A stretch of 64,000 nt of DNA, taken from assembly GCA_964545575.1 (NCBI GenBank), contig CAZJFL010000001.1, positions 221,812 to 285,811 on the forward strand. The letters run 5' to 3'. The notes under the pieces are model-generated. The model searched no databases and was not told the origin of the DNA. It worked only from the letters and a program-made list of their open reading frames with translations. Shown one piece after another: positions 24,001 to 52,700 of this stretch. Each line of letters opens with the position of its first letter. The first letter of the stretch is position 1. Origin of the DNA: an uncultured Planctomycetales bacterium. GTDB lineage: Bacteria; Omnitrophota; Gorgyraeia; Gygaellales; Profunditerraquicolaceae. The translations under genes and the position numbers were made by a program.

Positions 24001-27000
24001 ACACCCTCCGCGAAAGCTGGGCGTGTTCAGAATTATCTATATTGATAGTCCTGCTAAAATTATCCAGAACTGCCATGCGATTTTCTCCATCCGGCAGGAA
24101 TTGCAAACATTCTCTGGCGATATCATCTTCGTGTTCTTCCAGTAAATAGAAATAAAGGTTGCGGATTCCTTCCTCCGTATCCCTGATCGCCTCGCCATTA
24201 TCATCGCTTAGGCCTTTAACGATGTGGCTGATGAGCTCATGATACAGGATTTCGATTTGTTTGGCTTCGGGAAGGCTAAAGAAATACGGATGGAAATATA
24301 CGGTCTTGGAGGCAATATTGCATACGGCGACGTGGACTTTGTCGCCTACAGTAAAGTAAGGTTCGAAGTTAGTGACAATCAGCTGCCAGTCAGATAACTC
24401 CGGCGGCGCGCGGCCAAAAAACTGCTCCAGCAATTCTAAGGCCTTCCTCATCATATCTTCATCCCGGCTTCCTAATCTGGAGCCTTTAAGCGATGGAACG
24501 CGGAAACCTTCTCCCCGCGCCGCATACCAGAGATTAGGACGGAAGTTACGCTGCCGTTCTAGAAAATCCCGGGGCACTTCTAGCGGATGGGCGTTGGGTT
24601 CATCGGCATCCTTTACTTCTTTATTAATGACTACCCCTGAATCTTTCGTTACTGTACCAACTACGCCCCCGACTTTTCTTGCCAAAACAACCTGACCACC
24701 CTGCGCTGCTAAATCCTCGGCAGCCTCTGTTATATTTCTTCTTGCCACTCTTAAGTCTTTTGCGTTCCTGGTATAGCGCATTACCTGGCCCTCTTCATCG
24801 ATGGACTGGCCTGTTTCATCTACCATATCTTCTAAATCATCAATGGCATTACGCAACGCCTCTTTATCATGTGCCACTGCCAACAGGTATTGCGCCAGGC
24901 TTAAGCCTTTAATCCTGGCGATAGATGCAGAAATCCAGGGAGCGCTCAAGCCCACAGACTGCCTGTCACCCTCTACTAACTCTAATCTGACGTAACCACA
25001 CTGATATTGGCGCAGCCTGGCGAAACTTGCGCTCAAGCTGGCAAGGGAATTTATGAATTCCTGCTTTTCTTTGTCCCCGTAAGTATCAAGATCCAAAGCC
25101 GCTAGACCGCAGGCAGCCAGATGTATTCTCTTTAACACAGCCTTTTCTGCGTCAGAAAGGCGCTCATAAATCCCAAAAAGCTGTCTTCTATATTCCATCT
25201 TGTAGCAGGAAGCATCATTAGCTGCTCCGCCCCGCGCTCTAAATTCACCTTCGCTATAGATAAGACAACGCTGCATATCCATATTTCCGTAATGCTGGGG
25301 TTTATTCTCATCATTATCCTCGAGCAGTTGCGCAGTGGCATTACTGACGCCTAATTTGCTCAGCCGCCTATTTAACTCATCCCTGTAGCGAGAAACCTGC
25401 ACCCTAGAAAGATTCCCCTGATAATACAGGGTGAGCCGGTCGATATCGCAACCTACCATCCATAAGCCCAGATTAAACGAGCAAAGCATCGAGCTTATCT
25501 CGCTGATCCTCGCCCCGGTCTCGCTTTCTAATTTCTGCATAAAATCTTTTAAGGCAGCTATGATCGCCTCTGTGCCTTCGGGAAATCCGTATTCGCTCTG
25601 CGCTACTACATCACCGTTATCTACCGACCCGCCGTTGTCGCGGGAGCCGTTGTTAGAATCACTATCCCGGCGTTCTAACGAAGCGATGTAATCTAGCTTT
25701 CTCTGTATCTTGCCTGCCAAAGATGGCTGGAGCCTTACTACTTCTACCCAGTCCGCCCTGGTCTCGCTAAATTTTCCTAAGATAGCATGGGCATTACCGC
25801 GATTATAAAGTGCCTCAATATCTTCAGGATCTATTTTAAGTGCTGAGCTAAACCAATTGACGGCTTCACTAAACTCGCGCGCTTGCGCATAGATAATCCC
25901 GGTATTCACATGGGCATCGAGATTCTGCTGGTCCAATGCAATCGTCTGGGAATAATCGGAAAGGGCTTCCTTGGTATAGCCATTATCTAAATAGCTTAGC
26001 CCCCGGTTAAAGTATACGTTTGGATTTTGTGGATCAAACCCTAAAGCCCGGTTAAAGCAATTTAAGGCATTCTTAAAATCTCCTGCCTTAGAATATCTGA
26101 CACCCATTTTATCTAACACAGTGCAAATTAGGCCATCTTTATCCATTAACCTGATACGCCGATGCATATCTGTGACTCTGCCTAAATTAGAAAGATACTG
26201 ACTGCCAGACTCAGCCTTAAACTCATCTTCTAAGACAAAAATATGGCTTACTTTATGATATGCTAAATCTACCAACGCCTTCATATTGTTAGCAAGATTA
26301 AGTAATATGGCTACATGCGAAACCCGCTTGCCCCATATGTTTACGGTAATACTGATGGGGATTACCGTTAAGCCGACCGCTTTTGCGATGACAAAGAAAA
26401 GCTGGGTGAACCCTACGCAATCAGCCTTCCTCTGCTCAACTATATCTTCAAGATCAAACGCGCTTGCTTCTTCCATATCGGATTCTATTGCGGGATTAAG
26501 GGTATCGAAAATCTTTGCTGCGACCTTCACTTCCGCGCGAACTTTCCTTTCTTCGTTGCCACTTTGCCTTACATCCTCAAGCAAACCTTTAAGCTCCAAA
26601 ATATCTATCCCTAAGCTATCTAAAAACTCTCCTATGCTCTCGGATACCCTCTGGGGATTATCTATGTAACTTAACTCCTCAAGCTGAGCACGAAGTAATT
26701 TTTGCGCTCTGACCCTTGCTGTATCATCTAAAGAGCCGCCGTTGTCCACCGAGCCGGCGCTATCGCGGGCAGAACATGCCAATAAGGCTGCTCCCACCAA
26801 TGCCGCATCTACCATTTCTTTTACTTTTGGAATCTCATCGGCTAATATCACAACAAAATCATAGCTTTTATCTGTAAGTTCTTTTTGCAGTGCGGGCAAG
26901 GCATACCGGCGCGCCGGCTTACTTAACAGCCACCCTCCCAAAATAAATATGCTTGTTCCTTTCACGTCCTGCCAGAACTGAGCTTCTAAGCGAGGCTCTT

Positions 27001-30000
27001 TGACTACTCCTTTTCTGGGTTCTCCCTGCACGCCTCCTTCATAAGCCATAATCATAGTCCTTGCAATGGCTTCTCCCGCTTTTTGATAATAACCCCGTGC
27101 TATATCTCTTGCTTCCAAGTCTTCGCTTTCCGTCAACTCAGATATAAATTCTCCGGTTAACGCCTCAGCGCCAAATTTATGGAATAAATATTCGTTCTTC
27201 TTTGCTTGATATTCAAATCCTTTACCAGTTGCCAAATCTTCCGGTAGTAAGCATCCCGGGATTACCCTACCGCCTTCGCCTTTTTCTAAGATTATATCGA
27301 AGAACTGTTGCGGGCCCGAGATAGGTATTATTTGGCCATTCCTGATAATAAAAGCTCCTGCGCCAAAGCCGCTACCCGGAATAAATCCGGAAATTTTTGC
27401 GCCTTCCTTAACTACTTTTCCTATTTGTGTAAGGCTCTCTTTATAGACTAAAAGGCAATGCGCCATAGCTAAAACATGCGCCACTCCATCATTATTAACT
27501 ACCGCACGCCATTCAGAATTTGTTATCCTAGATAATTTTTTGGATAACTCCTGCGCTAATGTAAAATTCTCCAAGTCCGGCACATTAGGACTCGTTCCAT
27601 GGTAAGGCACGCCTTCTTCCAGCCAAGCCCCGGGGGCAGATACGCCTATTGTTTTTATCAAAGGGTAATTGTATCTCTCTCTAATCTCTGAAAGGCCGGC
27701 CCGTAAAATCGTCACGATTTCTTCTAAGGTAGCTTCTATATCAGGGACTTCTTTTCCCCCTACAGTTTTTGTGGGGCTCTTTATAATTTTCGGGTCAAAA
27801 AGAAGCTCGGGAACGCCGATAATTCTTCCGTTAATTATTGACGCTTTTACAAATGCTACCCTTGCGTGAGTTCCTCCTATATCAATTACAGGGATTATTT
27901 TTGTTGCGATATCCGCCAATGTTGTAAACTCGATATTTAATCTATGTTCAGTATAATCTAAGATGGCCTCGCTTTCCCGGATATCTTCCCACCCCAATTT
28001 AAATATTCTTCTTTCTCCCAATGCCTCAAAAAACTTCTGGCTTACGATAATATATAATTTTGCTGCATCGCCAATGGGGGCGCCGATCCAATACCTAGCA
28101 ACGCGGCTGCCTTTCTTATAAATAAAACCGAGGATGTGCGAGCCAGCTAAAGTCTTACTGTAACATTCTAGGGTATTAAATTCTTCTCCGGCATCATTGC
28201 TATTTCCTGTGGCTTCATATTCGAGCGATGTTTTATCCCCGTCATCCATAAGGGTAAATGTAAAGTGCGCTTCTATAGCTGGACTAAATTTTTTGTTTCT
28301 GAAGTGGCCAACGTATTCAAAAGACACCGCACCCTCACTCTTTATCGCCACATCTTTACCATCTTCAGAATCCCAATTGCTACCCAAAGGAATAAAACGG
28401 TATCCGTCATATCTGCTATGCCTACGCATAATCTCTTCTTGATGATCTTTGTCTATCGGGTTTCTCTTCCCCTCCGCGCCGAAGGCGGTATCGCAGGAAC
28501 CGCCGTTGTCCACCGAGCCGCCGGTATCGCGGGAGGACCCCGTCCTTAAATAGGCCTTATTTACATCCTGCACCCAGATAATATCGGCTTCCTTATTTAT
28601 AAATCCACGGAGATCCTGAAACTGGAATTGCTCCGAGGTAAATTCATTTATGACTTCGTCCACAGTTTTTCCTCTGGCTAATTCTTTGGCTAATTTGCGC
28701 TCAAGCCTGACCTTAGAATCCTCAAAGGTTATGGCTATCTTCAGGTCCAATAATTCTGTGATTCTCCGGTCTTCGGCTAATTTAAAAGTTCCGGAAATAA
28801 TAAATACATCTAGGTCCATAGCTATACTTCTACCTTCCATCTCAAAAGGACTTCTTTGATTAACTTTTATTAAAAGGTCCCTTATAATAGCTAAAAATGT
28901 TCTGTATTGGGGATCCTGAGGACCTATAAAAGCATCGAAGACTTCGGAACCTATATTTACGGATACCGCCTTGATACCGGCGGCATTCAAAGAAGAATCT
29001 AAATGGTCTGTTAATGTCTTTTTGCCGGAACACGGAAGACCGAATATTCCGATGATTAAAGGCCTCTTTGTGAGCTTCGGTATTAAATCCAATAACATCG
29101 CGATGAAATGCTCATCCTGCTGATCTTCGGACCCACCGTTGTCCACGGCGCCGCCGTTGTCCACCGAGCCGGCGTTGCCGCGGGTCATGAATAATTCTAA
29201 TCTCAAATCATATTTCCAAACCGCCTCTTTCATAACCCCGAAGAATTTAAAGGCAGCCTTAAATATGCCTCTTAAGTCAGTAGGATTCTTCAGGAAAACA
29301 GACAGTTGCGGATTAGCAAATAAAAGATACATTGGCTTACCAGTAGCTATCTTTAATTCAGGAATCTCTGTGGCGGGTTCAGCAAATCTTATCACTGCAG
29401 GATTACCATATCTGGGATTAAACTGTATTGTAATCTTGCCTTTCTCATTCCTTATAATATGGTATGCGTAGCCCCTGCGTGACTCTATTTCGCTTGAATC
29501 AGTCAAGACCTCGGGAGATTCAGTAATGCCTTCTTTGCCTCCGACCTCGCGGCAAATCCAGTTAGCTATCACCAAAGGCGCGTTGCCTCTATTGATTACA
29601 CGATGGGAATAATTAGGATTGATCATTACCTTTTCCCCCTGCTTGGCAAAGGTAATGATGGCTTCAAACCGGCAGGTTTCCGGGTTAATTCCCTGCTGAA
29701 TGTAAATAGCCTCACCATACCAGACCTCACATACCTCAGGATAGATATCTCCCTTTACAGAAATTGGATTTTGGTGCCCTCTAGTCATGATAAACTCAGG
29801 ATCCAGCTCCTTATTGATTACCCCGGGCAGCAGGACGATAAGATCAAATCTTATATTATTCTTCTTAATAGCCCCTCTATCGGATTTCAGGCCTACGTCG
29901 CGGTAGCCATAATAAACCACTCTGTCCCGCTCCTGCTTTGCTACTTGGGGCTCAGCGATGCTGTAGGCAATATCTTTAAGCGTCCGGCTCCATTTACCCT

Positions 30001-33000
30001 CAGAGGCAACCTCTTCGCCAAGTGCGATTTCGCCGGTGGCCAAATCAAGGGTTACCGGCAGGCCGGCAAAACCGGAAAGGTCAACCGCCTTGCTGGCCGA
30101 CCCGCCGTTGTCCACCGAGCCGCCTTGACCAGCTTGCAATTGCGCTCTTATTTTATCTGTTTTAAGCCCGCCCTTTAGCGGCCTTCTGGCTTGGTGACCT
30201 AAATCCGCAAAGGCACACGGCACGATCAGGCTCTCGTCTAAATCAAAGATCCTGGCTATACTAAGGCCGATTTGATATCTGCTGAGCTGTTGCGGCCCGC
30301 TGATATGATAAATGCCGGATGCGTTCTGCGCGATCAACCGCTCTATCGCATCGGCTAAACACCCCACCGCTATAGGATTGGTGTACATATCGTCAGCCAG
30401 CCTGATCTGGCGGCCCTGGCGACAAGCGCCGGAGACTTGTGCCGTAAACTTTGAGCCTAAGCCCAAGATCAGGGTCGGCCTGATAATCAAATAATTAGAG
30501 CGCGTATAGCGGATGGATTTTTCCGCATCTAATTTTATTCTACCGTACTCATTCACAGGAATAGTAACATCACTTTCTGAATAAGGCCCGTTTTCTCCGT
30601 CAAAAACATAATCTGAAGAGATGAATACAAGCTTGGCGCCGATAAATTTACTTATTTCAGAGATATTCTCTGTGCCTAATACTTGTATTTGAAATACTTC
30701 TTGGGGGTGTTCCTCGCAATAATCTATATCTACCATGGAAGCTGCGTGAATAACCACCTTAGGCCGTAATTTGGTTAATAAAGCGCGCACTGCCTTTGCA
30801 TCTCTTACGTCCAAGAAATAACCATTGTCAACTTTATTTCGATAGTATGTCCCGCTGGTCTTATAACCGGCTGCGGATAATTTACGCATCAGTTCCTTGC
30901 CAAGAAACCCTGACGCACCGATCACTAATATATCTACAGCTTTAGCCGTCTCTACCTCCTGCTTCAAGACGCCTTGAGATTCCAGGAATTCAGCAAGCAA
31001 CATAGTGCCGATAGCATAATATGCCAAAGAGTGCCTGCCGGTAGGATCCTGGCTGAGGCGGTTTACAGCATCGGCAATAAAATGCGTGGCTTCGGCAAAA
31101 AGCGCTTTGGCTAACCAGTCCGGCTCATCTTTTAAGAGTTTATTCAGCGTAGAATGATGAGCCAACAGCCCGGGCAAAGCAGCTCTGGCTTTCAGGAAAT
31201 TCGCAACTGCAGACTCGCTATCCCAGTATCCAAGCTCCATACGGAAATCCTCGTCTTCCTGCCAAATTCCTAATTCAAAGCGGTTATTGCGCACCAATTC
31301 CAATAAGATTGAATGCAGTATCTTGCCCAGCTCATAAGTAATATCTATCTGCGTAGGTATGCTGCGAGGTAAATCTACTCCGCGGATGTCTATCAGGCGT
31401 AAGGCTCCTCCTTCTGTCCTTAACACATTCCTTAATAATAAATCTCCGTGGGCGTAACGCGGGATAAAGCCCGGTTTTAATTTCTCTAATAACCCCGGCT
31501 GGGATTTCAAAAGAGCAAGCAGACGGGGTAAATTCGGATATTTTCTGCCATTGATATAAATATTTCTTGCCGCGAATAAATCCTCAAATAAATACGAAAT
31601 ATCCCTGTATCGATTGTTTTGTATCGTAATTGCCCTGTCTTTTATCAGGCGGCTGTAGGTAGCGGTTGTCCTATCGGTAAAGAGGCCCAGGCGGTAATCC
31701 ATCCTCTTTAGATGAATCCTATCTACGTAATCTTGGGGAACTTCTAACCTGCCTTGAGAATAAACAAAATCGCAAAGTAAATCTAGAAGACCGGATATCG
31801 TCTCTAAAAACTCTTCTGCCGCGGTAGGCGGATGATTAAGAAAATAGAAAGGTAAAGGTTCTGCATTCTCGATATATTGAGATGTGTAAAATACATAGCC
31901 CTCGCCTTCAACATAATCATAAACTTCAGGAATCAAAACTTCCGCCTCAGTAGGTAAAGTTTCTTTTAATTCCTTCAATCTCTTGTATTGGGCTTTTAGC
32001 CACGCTACACCATTGGCGCCGATGCCTTCCCAGTCAGAATATTTTAATATTACTATTCTACCCTCGCCATCTCTTACCAGGAAGGTCGTGGCTGAACTTC
32101 CGCCGTTTCTGATAACGTCTAAAATTTCGTAATGCTGCGTAACCTCCGGAGGCAGGCGCTCAGATAAAGCGTTTCTATTTCTAAACCCGTGGTAGACGCT
32201 TCCACCGTTATCCACCGAGCCAGTGTTGTCCACTGAGCCGTCTGAAATAACCGGCTTTTCATTTCTCGCAGGCGCAAATATCGCTCTTAATCTCTCGATG
32301 GCCTCCTGAGGGCTTAATCCCTGATTATTATGCAAAACATACGTTCCGGATATAAAGATACCGGCGCCTTTTTTGATCGCCTCAATGATCGTTTCCCCAT
32401 TAATGCCACCCTGAACCATAACCGGCTTAAAGAACTCCCTTGCCCGTAGCTGGTCAATCTTAGCTAAAGCTTCTAACTCAGTAGTACCGCCTATCTTGGC
32501 AGTAGGTATTGCGGAAACTACTATGCGGTCAACTTCGGATAATATTTCTTCCGGAACCGCGCTTATCTGCTCATCCGGCTCAATCACTACGCCTGCTTTT
32601 ATGCCGAGGGATTTCAGGTAGCGAATTCTCCTTAAAAGCCTTGCCTTATCTCTTCCAAAGGCGTCAAACTGCAAGTTGATGCTTCTGACTATACCTGTTA
32701 CCGCAAATGCCCTCAGGTACTTCTTAGATGGCTGCCAAGATAAGAGATGCACATCAAAAGGAAAATCCACACCTGCCAAGCTCATCTTCTCGATTAACTG
32801 CGGATTAAATTGGGCGGTGTTATCGGGATATTCGGTATTAGCATTTTCTCTGCCGGTGCGCTCAAAATAGGCGTTGGAGCGGACATCAAAATGTATCCCA
32901 TCTGCACCTGCCTCCTGGAGTATAAGGGCGGCACCAATTAAAACCTCATCGCTTACTTTACCCAATACTGATAGTGGCACATAAATTTTATAATTTGACT

Positions 33001-36000
33001 GGCCGTAAGCATCGGTGACAACGGTTAAATCCGGCCGCACTGTTATTGTCTGCAGATAATGTATAAAGGAAGGAGTATTTATCCTCCAGAATACCTCCGC
33101 CACCCTATCAATAGGCGAATGCCGGGCATCGCGCGGCAGGCGGCGCAAAATGCCCACCGAGGGCTTAGCCAACATCAGGATCTTTAAATCAAAATACCGG
33201 CTATATTTTCTGGTCAAAAGGTAATTCCCTTCAATGATGACCACAGTGGAGCGGTCAATGGTAATTTTTTCTTTGTGCGTTAATCCACCTCCCTCATATT
33301 TATCATAAAGCTCAGTTAAATCCAGGGTTAGGCTTTCTTCTCTGCCAGCGTTAAATTGCCTTATTTTTCCCAGTGCTTCTTTTTCAAACTTCTCTGCCCT
33401 TAGCGAAATCTCGTTATCATTAAGGCTAAATCCCGTTGCCCCTATCCTGCTTAATTCCGCGTCTTGCCGGGCATATCTATTTTGGCGACTGTCAATAAAC
33501 CAGTCGCGGCTGATCACCACGGCTTTGCCGCCCGCTCTCCTGATTAATTCTGCAGCCTTTTCTGCGGCGGTGGTTTTAAAAGCCCCGGAGTTGCCGTCAA
33601 TGGCAACCACTAAAGCTCTTCCTTCTGGCTTTCTTGATAAAGCCGCGGTTATCGCGTTCACAATTCTGGCGATGTAATCAACCGGGCTGGTGACCACAGC
33701 ACTCAAACTGCTCACGCGCTGCTCATACTCTGCATCAAACCTATCTTGCTGCGCCTGGTAATTCTGCATGCAGTTTTTCTGATAAAAGCCCAGCGTCACC
33801 CACCCAATCGCCTCTTCAAAGAACTGCTGTAGTTGCGGGCCGGAATTCTCGTTGTCCAGCTCGATGTTTACGCCCCATTGCGCCTGTAAGCTTTGCTTCT
33901 TCAGTTTGGCTAAGAATGCACGGCACTTGGGGTCATCGATATTACCCAAAAATTCCTCTACTCCTTTTGCAGCCTTCAGTAGGACCCAGATATTGGCTAA
34001 TCTCTGCATCATCGTCAGTTCCCCAAAAGTATATTCCTCTCCCGGAACCGGAATATCGCGAATATACTTCCTGACAACTACAAAAGTCTCAAAGGCGCTT
34101 AACAGGCCGTCCTGAATCTGCTGGTGCTTCCAGTGCTGGCCATCCGGCTCCAGGACACAGGCGGTATCTAACCTAAGCAGTCTGCGGATCTCTTTTGCCC
34201 AATAGCGGCTGCAACCCAAGAACTGGGTATCTGAACCATAAACTAAAAGGTCAGCGTAAGTCTTATTGTAATCGGCAGCCAGGATTAAAAGACAGGCATA
34301 AACACAAGCAGCATTCTGCCTGACTTCCTCATAGGTAATACCTTTAAGCTCAGCCATTCTTCTAAGGAGCAAGTCAAATTTTCCCTGATTTAAACCGCCG
34401 CTTCTATAGGCATAACCGTAATCTAAGGTACCGCCCTGAAAACCGGCCCTGTATTCTTCGCCGGAAGAAGCAGCAGTTCTTAAGCTGGCTAATATTTCGC
34501 TCACGCCCTTGCCTTGGGAGCGCTTAGCCTTAAAATAAGGCACGAAGCCGCTGAGCACCGTATCTTTACTTACCCAGACGCCCGGCTCATCGGCAAAATT
34601 GACGCCCATGCGGTTTCCGGCAATGGCAATGCCGACATTAAACATAGCTACCAGCTGGCCGATTTCTTCTTTTGCGGGCAAGACTACTTCTATCACCGAG
34701 AAACCGCTCTGACGCAATCTCTCAATTCTGGCCTGATAGCGATTATCTTGGGGCCCTAGTTTAAAATGCACAAAGAAATTCCGCTGGGGCTTATAGTAAG
34801 CCGGCTCTAAATCTTCTTCCTCGCTTAAAATAACTGGGATAACACCTCTCCTGGTTCCCTGGGAATCTTTTTTACCTAAGGACTCGGCAGTAATCTGGCC
34901 AAAGAAAGTAGATAAAGCCTTTAATTCCTCGGGCAACACATAAGTAATATGGGTTTTGCCGTGCGTTTCCATAAAGGCAATGAGCAAGCCAAAGAATAAT
35001 CCGGGGTTAATGACAGTGTTGTCTTCGCCTAATATCTTGGGATTTTGGCAGATAGACATCATCTTTGCTCCGGATTCTGTTACTGCTTCTAACAGCCAAT
35101 CGCCTGCAAAAGCTGCAGGGACCAGGCCTGGCTCGGCAAAGAATGAAGCATAGCGGCCGCCTGTGGCTTGGTCATGGTCAATGACAGTGCGATAACATCT
35201 TTCCGGCTTTTCTGTGGTGCGCAAGACATCTTTGGCATCGCCGTCTTTCTCTTTAGGATCAGCCACAGCCACGAAGTGGCTGCCGGTTTTTGCTTTGTCG
35301 CCGCCGTAGAGATCCAGTAATTTCTGATAAAAATAATCTTTCAGTTTGGTGATCTCTACAGTCGTCCAGGACTTACTGATCACAAAGAAAACCGTATGCT
35401 CAAGGTCAAGCTTCTCTTCTAATTCCCGAATGACCTGCGGCTCAACCGAACCTAAGATATAAATATTTTGCAGGCCAAAGATGCCTTTTAAAGCCACCAT
35501 CCCATTACCGGAACCGCCAATACCTAAAATTACTCCTGTGGTCAGACCGCCTGCTTTTAATTCAGCGGAGAGCTTTGTTAATTCAGGGATCCTTGCTCCC
35601 TGGATACGGCTTAAGATATCCACCCAGCCTAAACGACTCTTATTGTCTATCCAGTCCTTCGTTACTGTATCCCACCAGGTAAGTTTTCCGGAGAATAACT
35701 TGGGAACCAAGCCTTCTCTTTCTGCCTGCGTTACATAATCTCTTAGGTCAACGCTCTCTTTATCGGATAAACGCAGTTTAACCTCTAAAAGCGTAGAGAC
35801 TACTGCGCTTAATCCGCCGTTATCATGGCTACTGGCTAAAGCTGTCCCTTCAGCTAATCTTTGTAATTGAGCGGCACAAGATGAGCAGAAACCTGCTGCA
35901 GTGCGGTCCAATTCATCTGCGCTATGGCTTAAATGCATTACGCAAGAAGGAACATTGCAATGCAGGCGTAATTCGGTAGGAATAATGAATAAGCCACCGA

Positions 36001-39000
36001 TAAGATGCCCTACTTCGTGAATAGCATTTTTGAGGTTACGGCTAATGAAGGTATCTCTATCGGGATGCTGGAACCTGTATGCAGAATTGATAATGATATT
36101 TTTGGAGGGGTTGGTGCGGCCAAAAAGATAATTATATGCCTTACCGTCTTTACACAGGCCGGTAATATCTGCTTCGGTAATAACAAGAGTGGGGATTTTC
36201 TGTCTGGCGCCTTTAAAGAAATAAGGAAGTACAAATTGCTTGCGCTTTGCATCATAATAACCACCGATATTACTGACGATATCTTCAAATTTTACAGGAG
36301 AATCAATTATGACGTTTATATTGAAGGGGAATGCCTCGGTTATTCCTTTGGCAATCAACTGGGCTAATTCTATAACGGTATCGTGCCCTTGTTCTGTCGC
36401 GAAAGCAGGAATAATCTTTAAGAAAGGCGGAGCGCGGGAGGAATAAGGCAACCTCTCTACAGAAGCCATAATACCGCTTTCATCTCTTGGCGCTACGCCG
36501 CTTGGCTCCAGAGGCACATCCGCAAATAAGCCACCGTTGTCGCAAGAGCCGCCGTTATCAAAGGCACCTTCTAAATTAAACCCGCGCGTAAACCTGCGGA
36601 TAGATTCTTTGATCCTATCGATTACGTATTGCTGGGGATCTTTTACTCCGGATTCCCTGGCCTGAGCGTAAAGCTCCTGGCGCGCGGCTCTCACTCTCTC
36701 ATTATTCTGCACATAACGTCCGCAGCCTAAAACAACCTCCCGAAGCTGCGCTTCTCTTAAGCTGGCGATATCCTCAACCCCGGGGAACCATTTCCTCCAT
36801 CTTTCTGTTCCGCATAAAGCCTCTTCTACGATAGCTAAAAATCCACCTTTACCTGTTAGTTGTTCCAACTCCTCTAAGGCCAAGTATTCTTGGCGGGAAA
36901 ACTCCGGCCCTACATTTGCACAGGCTATCCCTGCCCCGGGCACCAGCGCCAGTTGCTCTTCTTGCATATAGTCAGAATTATGCTGTTTAAGATGTAACCC
37001 GTACCTAGCTGCCAAGTTAAAAAGCCTGACTACGCCCTCGGTATGGAATGTACCGAGCTGGTGGGAATCCAACACCTGGGTACCGGTATCAATAACCAGG
37101 TAAACTATGTTCGCCCAAACATAGTCCAACCCTTTCTCATCCAGTTTCTCCCGCAATAACCTTATATACTCTCCTACTGCATCCGGAGAATCCAGGACAC
37201 TGCCGGAGATGTCAGAACCGACCTCGTAAACAACCGGCGGCATATTCTGCTCTAACCGGTAAGCCTCACAGTCAGAGATTAAATCAACGGCCCTTTCCAC
37301 CATCTCGCCGATACTTACCAACGAGCCTTTCTTCTCGTAATCTAAAGTTACGTCTATATGGAGAATATCAAAGCCGGCATCTAAATCAGCGCGGTAGGTG
37401 CGCTTAGCATTTGCCATAGCTTGGCCTAAAGATAATAATTTATCTTGAGGCCTCTGCCAAGGGCCACCGTGGTCTCGCTCAATGAATACGCGCCCGCTAT
37501 AACCTACCTCAGAGGCGATTCTGCGGATTATAGTTACCAACTCTGCCTGGTTCCACCCCGTATATGAGCCTTCCACGTCAACCTGCCTTGGAGTAGCGAT
37601 AAATATAGGAATACAACCGTCTTCTTTTGCGACTTCAAGATAAGCCCTGATAATATCTTCGGACATCGGACAGACAGCAAGCAGCGTCATTTTCTTGCCC
37701 CTCTTGGCTTCCTGGCTTTTTACCTGTGCCCACATCCTAACAGATGCGCTCAACTGCGCATATTTGTCTAAAAATTCATTGACCAATATTACACTACGGA
37801 TATAAAATGCTTTTGCCCTTCTCTGGTCATGAATCCGCGTTAAAACATACCCGGCGAAATTTAAAGCGCAAATCAATTGCATTCTAAGCTGCCAATAGGG
37901 CTCGGTCTGGGAAAGATATGCTTTTACGCCTGACTTTGCTAAAATATCCTGGAACCTCTCCTCTAGCGCCTCGAACGCTTCCCATAGATAGCTCTCCTTG
38001 GCAAAGGAGAAATCAACGACGGTATTATCGCCTTGACGTATAGCTAAAGTATAAAGGCCTTTCTCCAATAGATAAAATTTACCGAATATGCCTTCTGCCA
38101 GCTTGCTTAAGTCATAGACTAAATCTCCCCGCTCATCCCCTCTGGGGTCAACAAATAAGAACTTGCTTCCTTCGGTCAGAATATTATGTAAACCCAGGTC
38201 GCCGTGATTAATACACAATGATAATGGATTAAGCAAAAGGAATAACTCCGGATTATCCTCCCATTCTCTTAATATGCGGGGAAGATTCCTGTACTTAGTG
38301 CCATTTATAATTAAATATTCGGACTGTAATAGAGATTGAAGATACGGCGCCCGCCTTAAGGCTTCTTCCAACCTGCTTCCCACCTTATCTAAGGTTATCC
38401 CCTTGAGATAACCGGCAGGGGCTTTAGCCTTGCTATCCGATACAATATCTCTCATATATGCGCTTAAGACATCCTGGATAATGCCACATGTTTCTTCCAT
38501 TGCCAGAGAGCCTTGCGCTATTCTATCGGCTAAGCTCTTAGCCTGCGAGTAATAAGGCATCTCATAATAAACATTCCCCTGCTCCAAGGAATAACTTAAC
38601 ACCCGCGGGAAATACCCTTGGAGCCTATCAGGTAGGTCCAAAATCCATCTTATCTCTCTTATCAAATCCTCTTCTGCGAATTCATACGCCTCTTTGCGAA
38701 CTATATATTTACCCTCTCTGTTTATAAGTAAAACTCTAGAGCAGGATTTACGCTCTATCACTCTTGCTATCTCTTTACGGGATACCCGGCGGGATGGGCC
38801 TACATAAGCAGAGCCGAATCTTTGAATTTCGGCTACTTTTTGTTTAAGGTCAGGGGCTTTTGAAAATATGCTTCTGGCGTTGAAAGAATCCGCCCCTGCC
38901 TCTACGACTCTTTTATAAGTATCTTCGGTAATGCCTCCGTCTATTTCTATGCTTACCCGGATATTCCTTTGCTGTATTAATCTTTTTAAGCTGCGTATCT

Positions 39001-42000
39001 TCTCTGTCATCCCGGGAATAAATGTGCGCCCTCCGCCTCCGGGCACAACGCACATAATCATTACCGTCATCATTCTGGCATCGAAATACCGCCAGAGGCT
39101 ATCTAAAGCAGAAATCGGGGTTTCCGGATTAAGAGAAACGCCCAGATATAAATCTCTCTGTTTGATATAATCGATCATTGCTTCCGCCTCGCCCAAAGAA
39201 GAAAAAGCCTCATAAGGCAATATAACTTTGTCTCTTCCGGGCTTTAACCCGGCGTTTATTAATCTATCTATCAAAGCTTTATCCGGATTTACTGCCCAAA
39301 GGTGCACATCCAGCGGCAACCCTATGCTGGATATTATCCTGATATCATCTGCGCAGTCCAAGATATCGCCTTGAGTCAACTTCCCGTCAAAATGGTCTAC
39401 GTGCACAGAATCCATGCCACACTCTTTAACCTGCTCAATTTCCTTTCTTAAACCGCTCTTATCCGCGTAGAGTATAGAATATGCCAGTGACAGGGAGCCG
39501 CCCTTACCGAGAAGCTTGACTGAAGCCCGCTTGATCTTATAGGCCTGGTAAGCTTTAGCAAAGTTATGGACCTTGGCCTGCCAGGGGTCTTTGCGGACGA
39601 TATCCGTAGTATCCAAGAAATCACCGGCAATAAGGAGGCTGAGCACTTCGTCTTTATCTAGTAAGGGGTTGATATCTTTGACAAATCTTTCAAAGGCAGC
39701 CTCGTCCGGCTGCAGTTGGGATATAGAATAAAGGGCGCTATGAAGCCTTATTACTTCTATCAAAACATCCCTGCTTGATAAATCTTTAGCTAATTCTGGG
39801 TTTTCTCTGAGCATTGCCGTTGATGCTCCGGCATGGTTTGGATACAGCTCGAGCATTAGTCCCTCTTCGGCAACTATCTGCGGCTTGATTCTGGACTTTC
39901 CGATATCATGCAGCAGGATGAAGAATTCGAAGAATAACCTGTTCCGCGGGTTAAATAATATGCTACGGTATTCCTGAGGTATGGATTGAAGGGCAGTGGC
40001 GGTATTTAGAGTATCGAGCATAACCCGGAGGTGGTCTATAAGTCTGGGCCCTTCGGTGTGTAATGGCAAAGGTAAATTAGGTATATCAAAACAATTATGG
40101 TATTCTTGAGACAAGCGGGTACAAATAAGAGCTCCTATATCGGTAGAACCACTCCTTACCTCTTCGCTGAAAGCAATGTCAAAGGCACCGCCGTTGTCCA
40201 CCGAGCCACCAATGAGTCCATCCAAATATTTATCCCATTTTGAAAAATCTATTCTTTCATACTGCCGCATCTTCCCGAAGAATAAGGTGGCTATCCTCTT
40301 AAGCGCTTCTTCGCTATAGCCCTCTGCGCGGCAGATTATCTTTGGTTCGGTTCCCGAGGCCCGCGCCAATGCCCAGCCATCGCTAAAAACAATCCTTAGG
40401 CCGTCGGTCTCATCGATATTATAATCTAATCTGCGGAAATACTCTTTGACCTCGCTGATAATGCGCTTCTTTTCTTCATTGGCATTATCGCCGGTCACGG
40501 TAAGACGAAACTCTCTGGTAGAAGGATAATGCGGTATTTCGTAAGCCGCAGCCTGGACGGTTGTGCCCTCTTTCCTTACCTTAGCCACAAAGCGCAATAA
40601 CTTAGCTGCGGTATAAATGCCGTCATCAATATTATGATTATCCGCAAAGAAGAAGTGGCCGGACTGCTCTCCGCCCATAATCGCGTTAACCTCTCCCATC
40701 TTCCTCTTAATATGGGAGAACCCTGTTTTCCATCTGATGGGCTTGCCACCGGCGTCTTTTACCACTTTTACTACCGCTTCCGTGCATTTGGCATCAAAAA
40801 CAACCGCCCTGCCGGGATTCTCTGCTAAGATGTCCCGGCTTAACATTGCTAAAATAATATCTCCGGAAACATCCTGCGCCATATTATCCACCACTACCAA
40901 CCTGTCAGCATCCCCGTCAAAAGCTAGGCCGATATCTTCTCCGCCTTCTCTTACCGCGTTAATCAGGCACTGCATATTTTCGGCTAATGTAGGATCGGGA
41001 GAATTATTTACACAATTCGGGAAATTGCCGTCGGCTACCCCGTTTATCAATCGCACTTGAGCGCCCAAAGCGGAAAATATTTTTGCTAAAGGCAGGGTGG
41101 CGGCGACGCCATTTAAAACATCAATCACGATTTTTAACCCGCTTAAATTCCCTGCTGCCTGAGATAATAAATCCGCATAGGCAGAAACCATATCTTTTTC
41201 TTCTATCTGGCCTGTGCCAGAGATAAAGCATCCGCTTTCTGCGATTTCGCGGATTCTCTTTAATTGCTCCCTACTGGTATTGACTATGCCTATGGTCGGT
41301 TTAAATCCGCCGTAATGGGCGGGATTATGACTTGAAGTAACCATAATGCCGGCATCAGCATTGTATAAAGGGACGGAATAAGAGAGCATCCCTGTAGAAA
41401 CAGTACCTAAATCAATGACTTTGACTCCGCTGGCTACTAATGCCTTAACCGTATCCTGATGTATTCTGGGTGAAGTAAGGCGGACATCATGCCCTACTGT
41501 TATCACTAATTTTCTCTTATTTAAAGCAGCAGCAGTAAAAGTAGCGAATGCTCTGGCTATGCGCGCGACCACATCCGTAGTCAATGTCTCCTCGGCATGG
41601 GCAGCGCGGATATCATTTTCCACAAAGATTCCGGCATCGACAGGCGCATATCCTAAATCTACCCATTGGCCGTCCGAACTCTCTATATTAGCCAATACTT
41701 GCTCTACTATACCTAAATACTCCTCTGCTGCCTTAGGCCCCTTATCCTTGGCGTTGATGAATAATCTGGAAGGTTTCTCCTCAGCAATATCCGGTCCGAC
41801 ATTAACCGTTGAATCCACCGCTAAAGCAGCTTCGCGGTCATTGCCTTGCGTATCAAACGAATCTCCGAAGAAGATAAAAGATTCTCTGCTTAGACCCAAA
41901 ATCTCTTCCGCTTTCCTAACCGCAAAGCCCTTATGTATTCCCGCCGGCAATATGTCAATAGCAGTCATCCCGGCAATTCTAATTTCCACCTCTATGCCTT

Positions 42001-49700: not shown

Positions 49701-52700
49701 ATAACTTCTTCGGTCCGCGATTTATCTAATCCGGCTTTCTCCAGGCCAACCCTTAACCCGTCCTCTTTTTGCAACTCCAACAGCGCCTGTAGTTGTGCAA
49801 AAGAATACCCCTGCCATACTTTATCATTCCAGATATCTTTAGGGTTAAGCTCTGTAGTAGAAACTATTCTGATTTTTTCTTGTGCGCCGTTGGCATTGAT
49901 AATCTTAACATCGCATGCCAACTGACCGGTGGTAATGGCTAACGGCTCTTCGCCTAACTCTTCCACATTCATTATCAGAGCTTTAGACTGAGCATCGATA
50001 TTCTTGATTACGGAATCGATAATAACGGTGCCTTTACGGACCGTGCCTTTATCAATGCGGCTCTTGCCCAGAATAATTACTCCGTCCTCAACCACGACCT
50101 CTTTGCCGAGTTTAACATCCGGGCCAACGATTGTCTTAGGCTTAAAGCCGCTTAAACCGACCAGGCAGCGTAAAATCTCTTCTTTAAAGAGTTGCTGTGT
50201 CGCCTGATAGTATCTTAAATTATCGCCTATCTCAGCCGAATAGGTGCGTCTTCCCGCCTCAAGGTAACCAAAGCTCATTTCGGCTTGCAAGACAGCGAGT
50301 ACTTTCAGCAAATCCTGATTCATATTCTGTTCGGTCTTAGTAATATCCGGACCTTGAGTCCTGCCGGGCTTAAGCAATACAGGTATGCTTCTGGCAGAGA
50401 AGTGATATACGGTAAGGTTATTCAGGGCAACTTCGGTTTTATCCTTGACATATTCTGCCTCTTCGGGAGAACCGCGCCTTAAAAGAGCGGTGATCCCATT
50501 TGTAGCGTCTAACTGCAATACGCCGTAATGCGCCCGGTCAGGAGAATTGACGCTTATGGTGGTCCCGACAATCTGTATATCCTGCCTGTCTACGCCGGTT
50601 AATGGCTCTGATATGGCAATCAGGCGATCAGTGGGCAACACCCATACGCCCGGTTGAGCAGCGCTGTAGAACTGCATACTCTGGCGCAATGCCTGAACGA
50701 GATTAGATTCTCCGTTAATGGAAGCGATCAAACCTTTGTTACCGCGGCCACTGGAGAGAGTGACGGGATAATTACGTTTTCCCTCGCCGCCGGCGAGAAT
50801 CACTAAAAGATTGGAGTGTTCGAAATCAAAACCGGCTTCCCTAAGCAAGTCCAAAGAGCGCAATAAGGCAGAAAGATTTCCGGGTATTGCTTTATTATTT
50901 ATGGGATAGATAAATACGGGAACTACCCCGGCTGCCTTCCTTTGAGATAAAGCTTCCTGCATCAAAGATATGCCTGAAGAATCTTTTGTAATGAGGATAC
51001 GCAGGTTATCCGGCAAGACCCGACCGGCTGCATCTTCGATAATTTGCCGGGTATAAGCAGCGGTTTCCCGGGTAGGTAAGACCAATACCGCATCATAATA
51101 ATGCGCGGAATCAAGCTGGGCTTCTTCGAGGTTGCGACGCTGGGTGCGCATTCCATAAAACGGAGTATCATTATAATAAGTAGTAACCTCTTCTTGACTG
51201 ATGCCCTCTGCGGCTAATATATCTGGGTGCACGTATTTTAAGGCCGCCAGATACATCGCGCCCACTGCCGGCCCAAAGGCAACCGAGAAGTTACCCTTGA
51301 ACTTTTCGCTGATTGCCTGGCCGAACTTTTTGGCGTAATCCGCTTCGGAAGCGATGGCAATCTTTACTTTTGCGGCAACCTGCGGAAATTCTTCTTTCAA
51401 AACTTTCTCTGCGGACTCTTTGACTATTTCTCCGGACCTGCCCATCATCTGGCCGCCAAAGAGTACAAGGTATTCCATGCGTAAATCCTCATAAGCATCA
51501 GCAACGGATATGGCTAAATACCTGCCGATGGTTTCAAACACTTTAATTGCTTTAGCATTACCTGAAGCGGCAAGCTGCTGTGCCCTCCAGGATCTAGCAC
51601 CATAATTATCTTCAGGGATAGCCTCACCTTTATCATCCTTATCCAGGCTTAAGCCTATTTCTTTAGCTAACCTTAAAACTGCGGCCTGCGGGATATATTG
51701 CTGGAGTGCACCTCTGAAACGTAATCCAAAATGCATCTCGGCTTTGGGATGAAAATCGATACTAACCTTGCTCATCTCGCCTAAGAAGTCGGACAAACCA
51801 ACGCTGCCTACATGGCCGCCGGCAAGGCCGGTGCCTACGCCAAAGACCGCGGCATTGCTGACACCAAGAGTAACTGCTGCAGATAAGGCAATCGCATCAC
51901 CGTCATTTAATACGCCTACGGGGATATTACCAAAGGCCTTGGAGATATGCTTGCTTAAAGGAGCGATTCTGGCCCAGAACTCTTCACCGCCGATATTCCG
52001 GAAGAGACGGGCTCCTTCCTGAACGATACGGCCCTCCACTACTGCGGCAGCCATACTTACTCCTACGGCATCTATTTTAACTATATTGATGCCGCAAGCC
52101 TCTACTGCTTTAATGAAGCTATTAATTTCTTTGAGGGTGGCGGTGCGGTTGGCTTCTAAGGTATCCAGCTGAGCACGCAACTGTGCATCGGCATTTGCCT
52201 GGCTGCGTACGGAGATAGCCGCCTGGGCAAACCTGATTAAAGTGACAAATACTTCCAAATGCTTATCTGCGCGATTTAAATTCTGAGGCAAGATTTCCCA
52301 GTTGTGGGCCTTGGTTAGAACAATTTGCCCGTCCTTTACGGCTAAGACCTTGATACTGGTGCCGCCGACATCCAAGGCTACGAAATTACCTTTACTGTAA
52401 TCAATGGTTTCCTGCTCCGCGGCTGCTTCTGTCGAGGTAACTTTAGTCCTGAAGGAAGCGATAGCTTCGGCTGTGGCGCGCAATAAAGCAAATGGCTTCT
52501 CATAAATACCGTTAAAATACATCAGCACGCGTTCATAACGGCCGCCCGGAAGGAGTATCTTGCTTAACTCCTGATAAACTGAATCGCTGGAAAGAATATA
52601 CATCTTGTGGGCGCCACAGCGATATAAGGTATTAATAATACTTAAAGCAATGTAATCGATAATCGCGGCGAATTCTTGCGGATTAATGCCTGCGGGAATC

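Follow-up and report, generated by a model that had tools for sequence, protein, structure and literature searches.

We analysed a stretch of 64,000 nucleotides (nt) of contig CAZJFL010000001.1 (positions 221,812 to 285,811 of the forward strand), called the window throughout, whose minus strand carries part of one giant gene. Between window positions 29200 and 52420 (the flagged region, amino acids (aa) 3861-11600 of the frame, read downwards from 52420), this gene codes for about eighteen modules of sugar-phosphate type in series. A first-pass annotation had described them as a sugar-phosphate and nucleotide-sugar pathway written as consecutive domains of one polypeptide. The explanation that we favour, and hold to be fairly probable, is that the flagged region is the enzyme-rich middle of a giant gene of the Omnitrophota 'Archaeovorin' or 'multi-enzyme metabolic cluster' kind, encoding a cytoplasmic sugar-phosphate toolbox whose units are bounded by a short recurrent joint and can be exchanged.

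Coding potential of the window

Frame 0 of the minus strand (codon 1 = window positions 64000..63998) runs through 21,333 codons without a stop; each of the other five frames contains 712-1,637 stops. A random frame would stay open over this length with a probability of (61/64)^21333, which by our own calculation is about e^-1024, so that the single frame is not due to chance. Its amino-acid composition and codon-position bias match those of real coding sequence, and its codon usage is homogeneous along the whole length. The true gene is longer than the window's 21,333 codons; because it runs off both window ends, the standard list of open reading frames (ORFs) of the window held four ORFs of at least 150 aa. 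Antisense ORFs of 184-222 aa had no Pfam match and were taken as spurious, and Rfam gave no match in the window.

About 20 independent Pfam families scored above their cutoffs in the window, with at most two copies of any enzyme family. A tandem-repeat scaffold was rejected, since BLAST showed only two internal paralog pairs, one of them being the two APH-like kinases (#1 and #2). Internal translation starts were also rejected: a Shine-Dalgarno-like sequence stands upstream of 14 of the 368 ATGs in frame, in no case at a module start or boundary. The same holds for a compositional signature of foreign cassettes, as the GC content at third codon positions stays within 0.39-0.53 along the gene and that of the variable unit U4 (see below) is no outlier.

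Enzyme modules of the flagged region

Module families were assigned by Pfam and NCBIfam profile searches (Table 1). Within the single stop-free frame these searches recovered nearly every domain named in the first-pass annotation, in the order given there, and assigned none of the segments to an unrelated family. The list required amendment in three respects: an archaemetzincin (Peptidase_M54) had been left out, the NTP_transferase, HD and APH calls lie below the Pfam gathering scores, and the second P-loop kinase is located just past the end of the flagged region. Profile scores and motifs together show the predicted modules to be genuine members of their families. The content comprises putative kinases, two unrelated phosphoglucose isomerases (PGIs), a phosphohexomutase (PGM), 3-epimerase-like (RPE) and GatZ-like barrels, HAD, HD and Nudix phosphohydrolases, CofD/YvcK-like modules, an RmlD-like reductase and a weakly matching nucleotidyltransferase.

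Judged by their motifs, most modules appear to keep their catalytic residues, namely the PGM, RPE#1, RmlD-like, HAD, SIS-type PGI, CofD/YvcK-like, APH-like and archaemetzincin modules and the Nudix core. In the PGM, all four loops are present (the phosphoserine loop SHNP at aa 7557, the Mg loop DGDADR at 7695, the sugar loop GEQSGH at 7777 and the phosphate loop RASGTEP at 7880). The His/Asp/His/Asp tetrad of RPE#1 is intact when aligned to 1rpx and 1tqj (HVD, DVH, IDGG). The SIS-type PGI keeps GIGGS, SKSWTT (for SKSxTT), GGRY and the catalytic ESLGK, and both APH-like modules carry HGDxxxxN. GASGFLG, of the NAD(P)H site (GxxGxxG), and YGRIK, with the catalytic pair YxxxK, are present in the RmlD-like module, which reaches 181 bits against TIGR01214 (rmlD; cutoff 224). 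The nucleotidyltransferase-like module carries an ILAGGEGKR loop. In the Nudix box, which reads G-x5-S-x7-REIKEEL-L (canonical G-x5-E-x7-REUxEExGU), the REUxEE metal-binding core is intact, but other residues stand in place of the first Glu and the final Gly. The archaemetzincin contains HEVGHLIG, a third His displaced by an insertion of about 8 aa (…LHC), CNVPSCVM and CSSC, and reaches 76.8 bits in NCBIfam against a cutoff of 145.

Table 1. Features of the giant gene in the window, in the order of the reading frame (TM, transmembrane; all on the minus strand)
Feature	Window positions	Residues (aa)	Strand	Remarks
Single stop-free reading frame, 21,333 codons	2..64000		-	continues past either end of the window
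Last strong TM helix before the enzyme chain	53582..53638	3455-3473	-	hydropathy 2.87
ROK-like ASKHA sugar kinase	51317..52381	3874-4228	-	35 bits; DVGGT, NDGD, GTGLAGG kept
Sugar-1-P nucleotidyltransferase-like with left-handed beta-helix hexapeptide region	49946..50803	~4400-4685	-	19.5 bits, below cutoff; glgC 23.6 bits
NUDIX	49379..49573	4810-4874	-	Pfam/NCBIfam
Joint ITDNGG	47927..47947	5355	-	degenerate copy
CofD/YvcK-like #1	46715..47398	5535-5762	-	Pfam/NCBIfam
Joint GSVDNGG	46046..46066	5979-5985	-	
Tight TM helical hairpin	44252..44380	6541-6583	-	followed by ARKLKQ; chain back on the same membrane side
CofD/YvcK-like #2	42773..43873	6710-7076	-	GGTG, ADSGGSSG, PGD, GPGSxxTS loops (YvcK-type)
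HAD-IIB phosphatase	41828..42523	7160-7391	-	motif I DMDET; HAD-SF-IIB 51.5 bits, above cutoff of 41.8
Phosphohexomutase PGM/PMM, domains I-IV	40286..41629	7458-7905	-	Pfam 48-94 bits per domain
Joint GSVDNGG	40187..40207	7932-7938	-	exact 20-nt core; 5' boundary of U4
Unit U4: HD, RPE#1, APH-like #1, GatZ/KbaZ-like	36560..40186	7939-9147	-	bounded by joints
HD		8012-8094	-	16.7 bits, below cutoff
RPE#1		8172-8376	-	121 bits
APH-like kinase #1		8422-8754	-	19.7 bits, below cutoff; HGDLGLHN
GatZ/KbaZ-like barrel		8763-9143	-	101 bits
Double joint FDNGGSCDNGG	36530..36559	9148-9157	-	3' boundary of U4; N-terminal boundary of protease unit
Archaemetzincin (Peptidase_M54)	35858..36355	9216-9381	-	HEVGH ... 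HC-x4-C-x-M ... CSSC
Joint SHDNGG	35813..35824	9393-9396	-	C-terminal boundary of protease unit
SIS-type phosphoglucose isomerase	34559..35785	9406-9814	-	192 bits to PGI half of TAL/PGI
PRK/uridine-kinase-like P-loop kinase #1	33026..33610	10131-10325	-	P-loop GNSGAFKTT
RPE-like barrel #2	32336..32917	10362-10555	-	His, Asp, His kept
Double joint GSVDNTGSVDNGG	32201..32239	10588-10600	-	
APH-like kinase #2	30953..31957	10682-11016	-	HGDLLLRN; paralog of #1
RmlD-like NAD(P)H sugar reductase	30137..30934	11023-11288	-	Pfam RmlD_sub_bind 186 bits
Joint GSVDNGG	30101..30121	11294-11300	-	exact 20-nt core; homology to contig L003 ends
Cupin-type PGI-like (Pfam GPI)	29540..29935	11356-11487	-	76 bits
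Double joint GSVDNGGAVDNGG	29132..29170	11611-11623	-	
P-loop kinase #2	28613..29101	11634-11796	-	GLPCSGKKT
Joint GSVDNGG	28499..28519	11828-11834	-	exact 20-nt core
Joint GSVDNGG	26735..26755	12416-12422	-	exact 20-nt core
Joint SRDNGGSVDNGD	25610..25648	12785-12797	-	homology to contig L003 resumes
ARMT1-like damage-control phosphatase		13455-13725	-	same ORF, downstream of flagged region
Dense TM clusters		13768-16055 and 18504-19432	-	separate downstream modules
Fic		14254-14359	-	same ORF, downstream
Enolase C-terminal barrel		~17323-17528	-	matched in two stretches; same ORF, downstream
PEP-synthase/PPDK-like module		20079-21080	-	same ORF, downstream

A recurrent joint between the units

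DNGG occurs 13 times in the frame (0.24 expected; at most 2 in 300 shuffles), and in a k-mer analysis this joint was the sole recurrent oligopeptide in the 21,333 residues. Its form is mostly G-S-V-D-N-G-G-S/A, sometimes doubled. All joints lie between aa 5355 and 12797, nearly all of them between Pfam modules, and their 11 loci (window 25610-47947, minus strand) divide the enzyme-rich part into 11 units, which are 207-1,949 aa long. In order, these units hold ROK, NTP and NUDIX; CofD#1; the TM hairpin, CofD#2, HAD and PGM; HD, RPE#1, APH#1 and GatZ (unit U4); the archaemetzincin; PGI, PRK#1 and RPE#2; APH#2 and RmlD; the cupin-type PGI; P-loop kinase #2; a dark unit; and a unit with TM segments and TPR.

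The conservation extends to the DNA. The joint core GGCTCGGTGGACAACGGCGG was found in 8 copies within 3 mismatches, always on the coding strand (0 copies in shuffles), with exact 20-mers at 26736, 28500, 29151, 30102 and 40188. The codons are ones that are rare in the gene, TCG making up 9% of its Ser codons but standing at 6 of 7 joint sites (P = 3e-6), and AAC is used at 7 of 7. Similarity among the joints stops after about 24-30 nt, for which reason a longer repeat, of which the joint would be a piece, was rejected. A common RNA fold at the joints was not found (z-scores -3.2 to +0.95).

The joint motif is absent from the searchable literature. One exact match to its DNA form in IMG/VR (L005:3817-3836, IMGVR_UViG_3300049830_000092), about as many as a rough estimate predicts by chance, was judged to be a chance match, being intergenic, directly upstream of an ATG and without homology to the giant. 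The core also contains GCTCGGTGG, one inserted base from the Escherichia coli Chi site, GCTGGTGG; we treat this as a lead only.

Relatives and unit-level mosaicism

When four modules together were used as the query of an exhaustive HMMER search, most matches were ordinary PGMs that levelled off near 38% identity and whose cluster names were uninformative on taxonomy; three matches stood out above this plateau (P0019, P0020 and P0021). P0019, from a Candidatus Omnitrophota metagenome-assembled genome, is collinear with aa 6710-7954 of the giant, i.e. CofD-HAD-PGM (39% identity across 1,290 aa). GSVDNGG joints are absent from P0019, and the CofD-HAD-PGM block is therefore older than the joint system. 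The P0019 gene (L004, GCA_030647935.1, JAUSIU010000095.1) has a true start codon, directly behind a small GIY-YIG gene, and is cut short at 1,835 aa by the end of the contig. P0021 is a fragment of 501 aa that begins mid-PGM and is 57% identical. P0020 lies on a 14.7-kb contig that is coding from end to end (L003; JGI 3300063114, Ga0598272_0003294).

By tblastn, L003 matches the window in the following order: the PGM at 65% identity; after a jump, the archaemetzincin and SIS-type PGI at 88%; PRK#1-RPE#2-APH#2-RmlD at 83.5%; unrelated sequence; and a block at 80%. The whole of U4 (the 1,209-aa unit HD-RPE#1-APH#1-GatZ) and the cupin-type PGI are missing from L003, and its unmatched part holds other units, namely HATPase_c, HAD and PPDK_N. 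All three mosaic breakpoints fall exactly on joints, for which the chance probability is about 5e-7. At the jump, L003 reads ...ELVGGSVDNGG followed directly by LFADASL..., which corresponds to window aa 7938 joined to aa 9158 with U4 left out. Past RmlD, the window and L003 are identical through GGSVDNGGS and then unrelated, until homology is back at the joint at aa 12788. Differences between the relatives thus concern entire units and set in precisely at joints, and the joints of L003 use the same codons.

The blocks also differ greatly in their synonymous divergence (dS), which ranges from 0.25 to >2, and this argues for a recombinant history. The PGM (L003:3-1016 against window 40187-41190) shows 65% identity and a dS of >2, compared with 84-88% identity in the units next to it. 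In the phosphate loop of the PGM, L003 has RVSSNEP where the window has RASGTEP. These differences suggest that a diverged copy has taken the place of the PGM unit.

The reading frame of L003 breaks at 3317-3419: P0020 ends at nt 3419, and from nt 3338 onwards the homology is carried on by a second ORF in a different frame. No such break exists at the corresponding place of the window (aa 9934-9941); that in L003 could be a sequencing error or a real split. Together with the fact that repeats are classic places for misjoins, it might be taken to mean that the giant ORF is itself an artefact of assembly or sequencing, either an operon whose stops were lost through error or a product of chimeric joins at the joints that only look like unit swaps. 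We consider this hardly credible, as zero stops in 21,333 codons and modules fused in frame by a conserved peptide are incompatible with random error. Furthermore, independent contigs from other samples share the fused architecture, purifying selection covers linkers and dark regions, and the repeat core of about 20-24 nt is shorter than the usual assembly k-mers.

When the window was compared with L003 by the Nei-Gojobori method, the ratio of nonsynonymous to synonymous divergence (dN/dS) lay within 0.09-0.34 for all modules compared; it was 0.19 for RPE#2 and 0.24 for a Pfam-dark stretch. Every module that can be compared with a relative of 80-88% identity is under purifying selection. The residues that are atypical at active sites are identical in the window and L003, and the metal-binding motifs of the archaemetzincin are invariant. 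Because of these low ratios and the shared atypical residues, the modules are to be regarded as maintained protein and not as decaying relics. The systematic loss of catalytic residues that would have spoken against active enzymes was thus not observed.

The GatZ module (window 36572-37714) is 57% identical to a stand-alone gene, P0017 (L002, Logan SRR12594517 contig, gene 173-3058), which is complete and codes for a GatZ-like, B12-binding and radical-SAM protein of 961 aa. At least one module family therefore also exists outside giants. Partners of this stand-alone gene type are listed among the domains that co-occur with the sugar module in a preprint on giant genes (Nielsen & Lui 2026, 10.64898/2026.06.07.730766).

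Scans for further relatives gave only an ordinary Luteibacter PGM in the GTDB representative genomes and none in the IMG/VR proteins or the JGI metagenomes, the latter collection evidently lacking the sample that holds L003. A word-index protein search missed P0020 in spite of 88% identity over some 750 aa of its query, so that the negatives of this search are weak.

Membrane segments and orientation of the chain

Hydropathy analysis revealed 41 TM-like segments in the window, which are clustered. Directly after the last helix before the enzyme chain (aa 3455-3473) follows RSITIWRRTLKQ, with 4 K/R among the next 15 residues. K/R-rich flanks follow both this helix and the TM hairpin (aa 6541-6583). 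According to the positive-inside rule, the whole enzyme chain is therefore probably cytoplasmic and tethered by TM segments. The calls rest on hydropathy and the positive-inside rule alone and are accordingly crude; the placement agrees with the need of the modules for ATP, NTPs and NAD(P)H. This arrangement also fits the tethered array that the first-pass annotation had suggested as a metabolon. That part of the suggestion is supported, whereas 'one chain' may hold at the level of the gene only, because the double-glycine joint between protein-sized units could be a cleavage site.

An opposite orientation would make the modules sugar-binding or sugar-processing parts, several of them pseudo-enzymes, that are displayed outside the cell on a surface protein attacking prey or host. 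Surface or effector roles are favoured for many giants both by West-Roberts et al. 2023 (10.1101/2023.11.21.568195) and by Nielsen & Lui 2026, with TMHMM or DeepTMHMM putting metabolic domains outside in some; in addition, some of the modules studied here are atypical at catalytic positions. We nevertheless regard this orientation as highly improbable. Modules of the kinase, nucleotidyltransferase, NAD(P)H reductase and phosphomutase types depend on ATP, NTP, NAD(P)H or sugar bisphosphate, which are cytoplasmic, and their cofactor and catalytic motifs are intact and conserved. The positive-inside rule puts the chain inside the cell, and no signal peptide, lectin, dockerin or glycoside-hydrolase domain was found in the window.

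A cluster of eight TM-like helices (aa 3015-3473) directly precedes the enzyme chain and forms the end of a region of 3,470 residues without any Pfam match (aa 1-3473, window 53579-64000, minus strand). The membrane parts had no recognisable function in Pfam or PDB sequence searches; when the TM-rich regions were compared with PDB sequences, the Fic domain was the sole match. Single-sequence AlphaFold models of aa 5986-6540 and 18490-19450 had a confidence (pLDDT) of 36 and 45, respectively, and no usable fold.

Function of the module array

In the explanation that we favour, the modules would form a co-expressed, co-localised and membrane-tethered cytoplasmic toolbox that interconverts hexose and pentose phosphates and nucleotide sugars. 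Its enzymes would be made in fixed stoichiometry at one place, and they would not constitute one linear pathway.

Read in the sense of the first-pass annotation, the modules would form a coherent route, in which glucose is converted to glucose 6-phosphate, glucose 1-phosphate, a nucleoside diphosphate (NDP) sugar and a modified NDP-sugar that is handed to glycosyltransferase-like membrane parts of the same protein. The kinase, PGI, PGM, nucleotidyltransferase-like and RmlD-like modules that such a route needs are present and mostly intact, TM clusters occur up- and downstream in the same ORF, and PGM and ROK co-occur with starch-synthase and GT1 across giants according to Nielsen & Lui 2026. 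For the gene studied here, the route is nonetheless improbable and the claim was not borne out. Among the 21,333 residues, no glycosyltransferase, RmlB or RmlC domain was detected, the TM regions showed no match to anything known, and the nucleotidyltransferase remains below threshold. The presence of two PGIs, two RPE-like barrels, four or five kinases and four phosphohydrolases resembles a toolbox and not a line, and the units HD-RPE-APH-GatZ and cupin-PGI are dispensable in L003.

Several observations weigh against the toolbox explanation as well. None of the modules reaches an NCBIfam equivalog cutoff; for this reason family membership is secure, while the exact substrates are guesses. Five modules are atypical by their motifs. 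In the ROK-like module, ExGH reads EMSK and the zinc Cys motif (CxCGxxGC) is absent, while the ATP and catalytic-Asp motifs are kept, which marks it as a predicted ASKHA kinase related to ROK and not as a canonical ROK. RPE#2 has Gln (VMVQGG) in place of the second catalytic Asp, also in L003, and so departs from the His/Asp/His/Asp tetrad. The cupin-type PGI reads GHQN for GHxH, by which one metal His is lost; its distal His is kept and its Glu is ambiguous in the alignment. Both P-loops are off-consensus, that of kinase #1 (GNSGAFKTT) being identical in L003. Moreover, the mosaic was deduced from one 14.7-kb metagenome contig with a frame break, and an assembly chimera at the repeated joints is possible, a concern that the shortness of the repeat tempers. 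The assignment to Omnitrophota rests on one relative of 39% identity and on architecture, the window containing no marker gene. Finally, for the longest giant of Nielsen & Lui 2026, DeepTMHMM is reported to put the metabolic modules outside the cytoplasm.

The joint as a proposed recombination site and putative cleavage site

The breakpoints suggest how the units could move. Identity over about 20-24 nt at the joints would allow homologous recombination to insert, delete or exchange units in frame, and recombination unit by unit would then be the way in which the gene grows and diversifies. For RecA-type recombination, the minimal processing segment has about this length.

The peptide may have a second role. 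Cleavage after GG is known from proteases of clan CA, among them C39 and the papain-like LxGG enzymes, and if the chain is cut at all, the double glycine of the joint would be the likeliest site. The giant could then be a polyprotein that a GG-specific protease cuts after ...DNGG into at least 11 proteins of ordinary size, acting free or separately anchored. Candidate proteases would be a C39-type domain in the N-terminus beyond the window or the embedded archaemetzincin, and such processing would be compatible with cassette exchange at the joints. In favour of cleavage, a strictly conserved short peptide ending in GG, in a context rich in G, S, D and N, bounds units of 207-1,949 aa, so that the chain holds both a recurrent site between protein-sized units (the 13 DNGG copies) and a protease. 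The archaemetzincin with its invariant metal motifs forms a 235-aa unit of its own with a joint on either side, in the window as in L003, which is the layout of self-processing viral polyproteins. On the other hand, the joint carries Asp at position -4, which is hydrophobic in canonical C39 leaders. The window contains no C39 or S8 domain, the codon conservation at the joints is not explained by a cleavage site alone, and most of the chain would stay uncut, as joints occur only at aa 5355-12797. West-Roberts et al. 2023 found C39 and S8 near the N-termini of full-length giants and raised cleavage as a question, while stating that no cleavage points are known in giants. Taking both sides together, we consider a cleaved polyprotein unlikely, yet a serious alternative to the uncut toolbox.

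Both roles might also be combined. Giants of this kind would then be 'operons without stop codons', in which each inter-joint unit is a former or potential stand-alone protein and the joint serves both as an in-frame recombination site and as a GG cut site. We offer this idea tentatively and think it rather doubtful. If true, it would describe a cellular, cassette-based polyprotein system with a modularity like that of integrons or polymorphic toxins, applied to metabolism.

In practical terms, the joint is a searchable punctuation which marks unit boundaries, predicts peptide termini, gives cut points for structure prediction and expression, and may explain how such genes grow and diversify unit by unit. 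If joints prove general, they would help in studying how the giant class as a whole evolves and is made.

Comparison with known systems

Fusing this many steps into one chain had been called unusual in the first-pass annotation, which is correct in general, but such fusions have already been described for Omnitrophota giant genes. Nielsen & Lui 2026 define a class 1, 'multi-enzyme metabolic cluster', with a sugar-metabolism Pfam module (PGM, ROK, HAD, NUDIX), found in Omnitrophota and mostly in Gorgyraeia genomes, and leave function and sidedness open. The gene resembles this class in its stop-free ORF of more than 10,000 aa (here at least 21,333 codons), the many Pfam families that tile the chain with none dominant, the same sugar set (PGM/PMM, ROK, HAD, NUDIX, HD), TM helices of about 2-4% of residues, and a unique sequence with architecture kept better than sequence. 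The window thus shows the class-1 architecture in length (at least 10,000 aa), family tiling, sugar content and membrane association as judged by hydropathy. The starch-synthase, GT1, response-regulator and radical-SAM domains of the class are not in this window. The joint motif and the unit-level mosaicism were seen here only; the words 'linker', 'cleavage', 'recombination' and 'fusion' do not occur in the text of the preprint, which is a catalogue and, in the sections consulted, contains no discussion of catalytic residues or selection.

West-Roberts et al. 2023 described Omnitrophota 'Archaeovorins' with NUDIX, PPDK_N and TPR, PGM/PMM and PGI being less common. The gene shares with them the NUDIX, peptidase, TPR, PPDK_N, PGM/PMM and glucose-phosphate-isomerase domains in a TM-rich giant ORF, and the question of cleavage is common to both. 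SecA-DEAD-like, glycosyl-transferase, glycosyl-hydrolase, methyltransferase, C39 and S8 domains were not found in the window's 21,333 residues, but the ORF continues past both ends, and the missing domains, including the N-terminal C39/S8, may lie outside. That paper favours extracellular attack on cell walls, whereas the modules here look cytoplasmic. We conclude that the gene is a sequence-unique member of a recently described giant kind, while its punctuated, cassette-like organisation, given by the joint and the unit-level mosaicism, is apparently new. The giant Omnitrophota genes are among the largest known, and the present gene adds enzyme modules that are maintained as functional protein, to judge from motifs and dN/dS, as well as an argument for the cytoplasm.

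For the joint itself, the nearest mechanistic analogy would be the junctions of polymorphic toxins, VENN in CdiA and DPxGL in Rhs (see Zhang et al. 2012, PMC3482391). There too, a short peptide and DNA motif stands at the exact recombination point for variable cassettes, and DPxGL of Rhs is also a proteolytic site. Those proteins have one junction before a single C-terminal toxin with its immunity gene, in contrast to at least 11 junctions among metabolic units in one ORF here; toxin or immunity features are lacking, and the motif sequence is unrelated. Viral polyproteins and C39 or papain-like LxGG processing systems likewise have protein-sized units in frame, a short recurrent site with GG at its end, and a protease unit that has such a site on either side. 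Unlike these, the gene described here is cellular and membrane-anchored, the joint context differs from that of C39 leaders, the joint codons are conserved too, and the joint is a candidate site.

Several related catalytic steps on one polypeptide are also known from AROM, CAD, fatty acid synthases (FAS), polyketide synthases and nonribosomal peptide synthetases (PKS/NRPS). These have 2-10+ domains in the obligatory order of a pathway, with carrier domains in the megasynthases. In our case, no Pfam family for carrier (PP-binding), ketosynthase or condensation domains was found anywhere in the window, the steps are partly duplicated and do not form a linear series, and close relatives can do without entire units.

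Downstream part of the gene

The part downstream of the last joint (aa 12798-21333, window 2-25600, minus strand) contains no joints. It comprises the ARMT1-like phosphatase, Fic, enolase and the PEP-synthase/PPDK-like module, with TM clusters between them. The second of the two internal paralog pairs is also located here: its members, aa 16469-16790 and 17545-17871 (window 10388-14593, minus strand), share 23% identity over about 350 aa and flank the enolase-like region.

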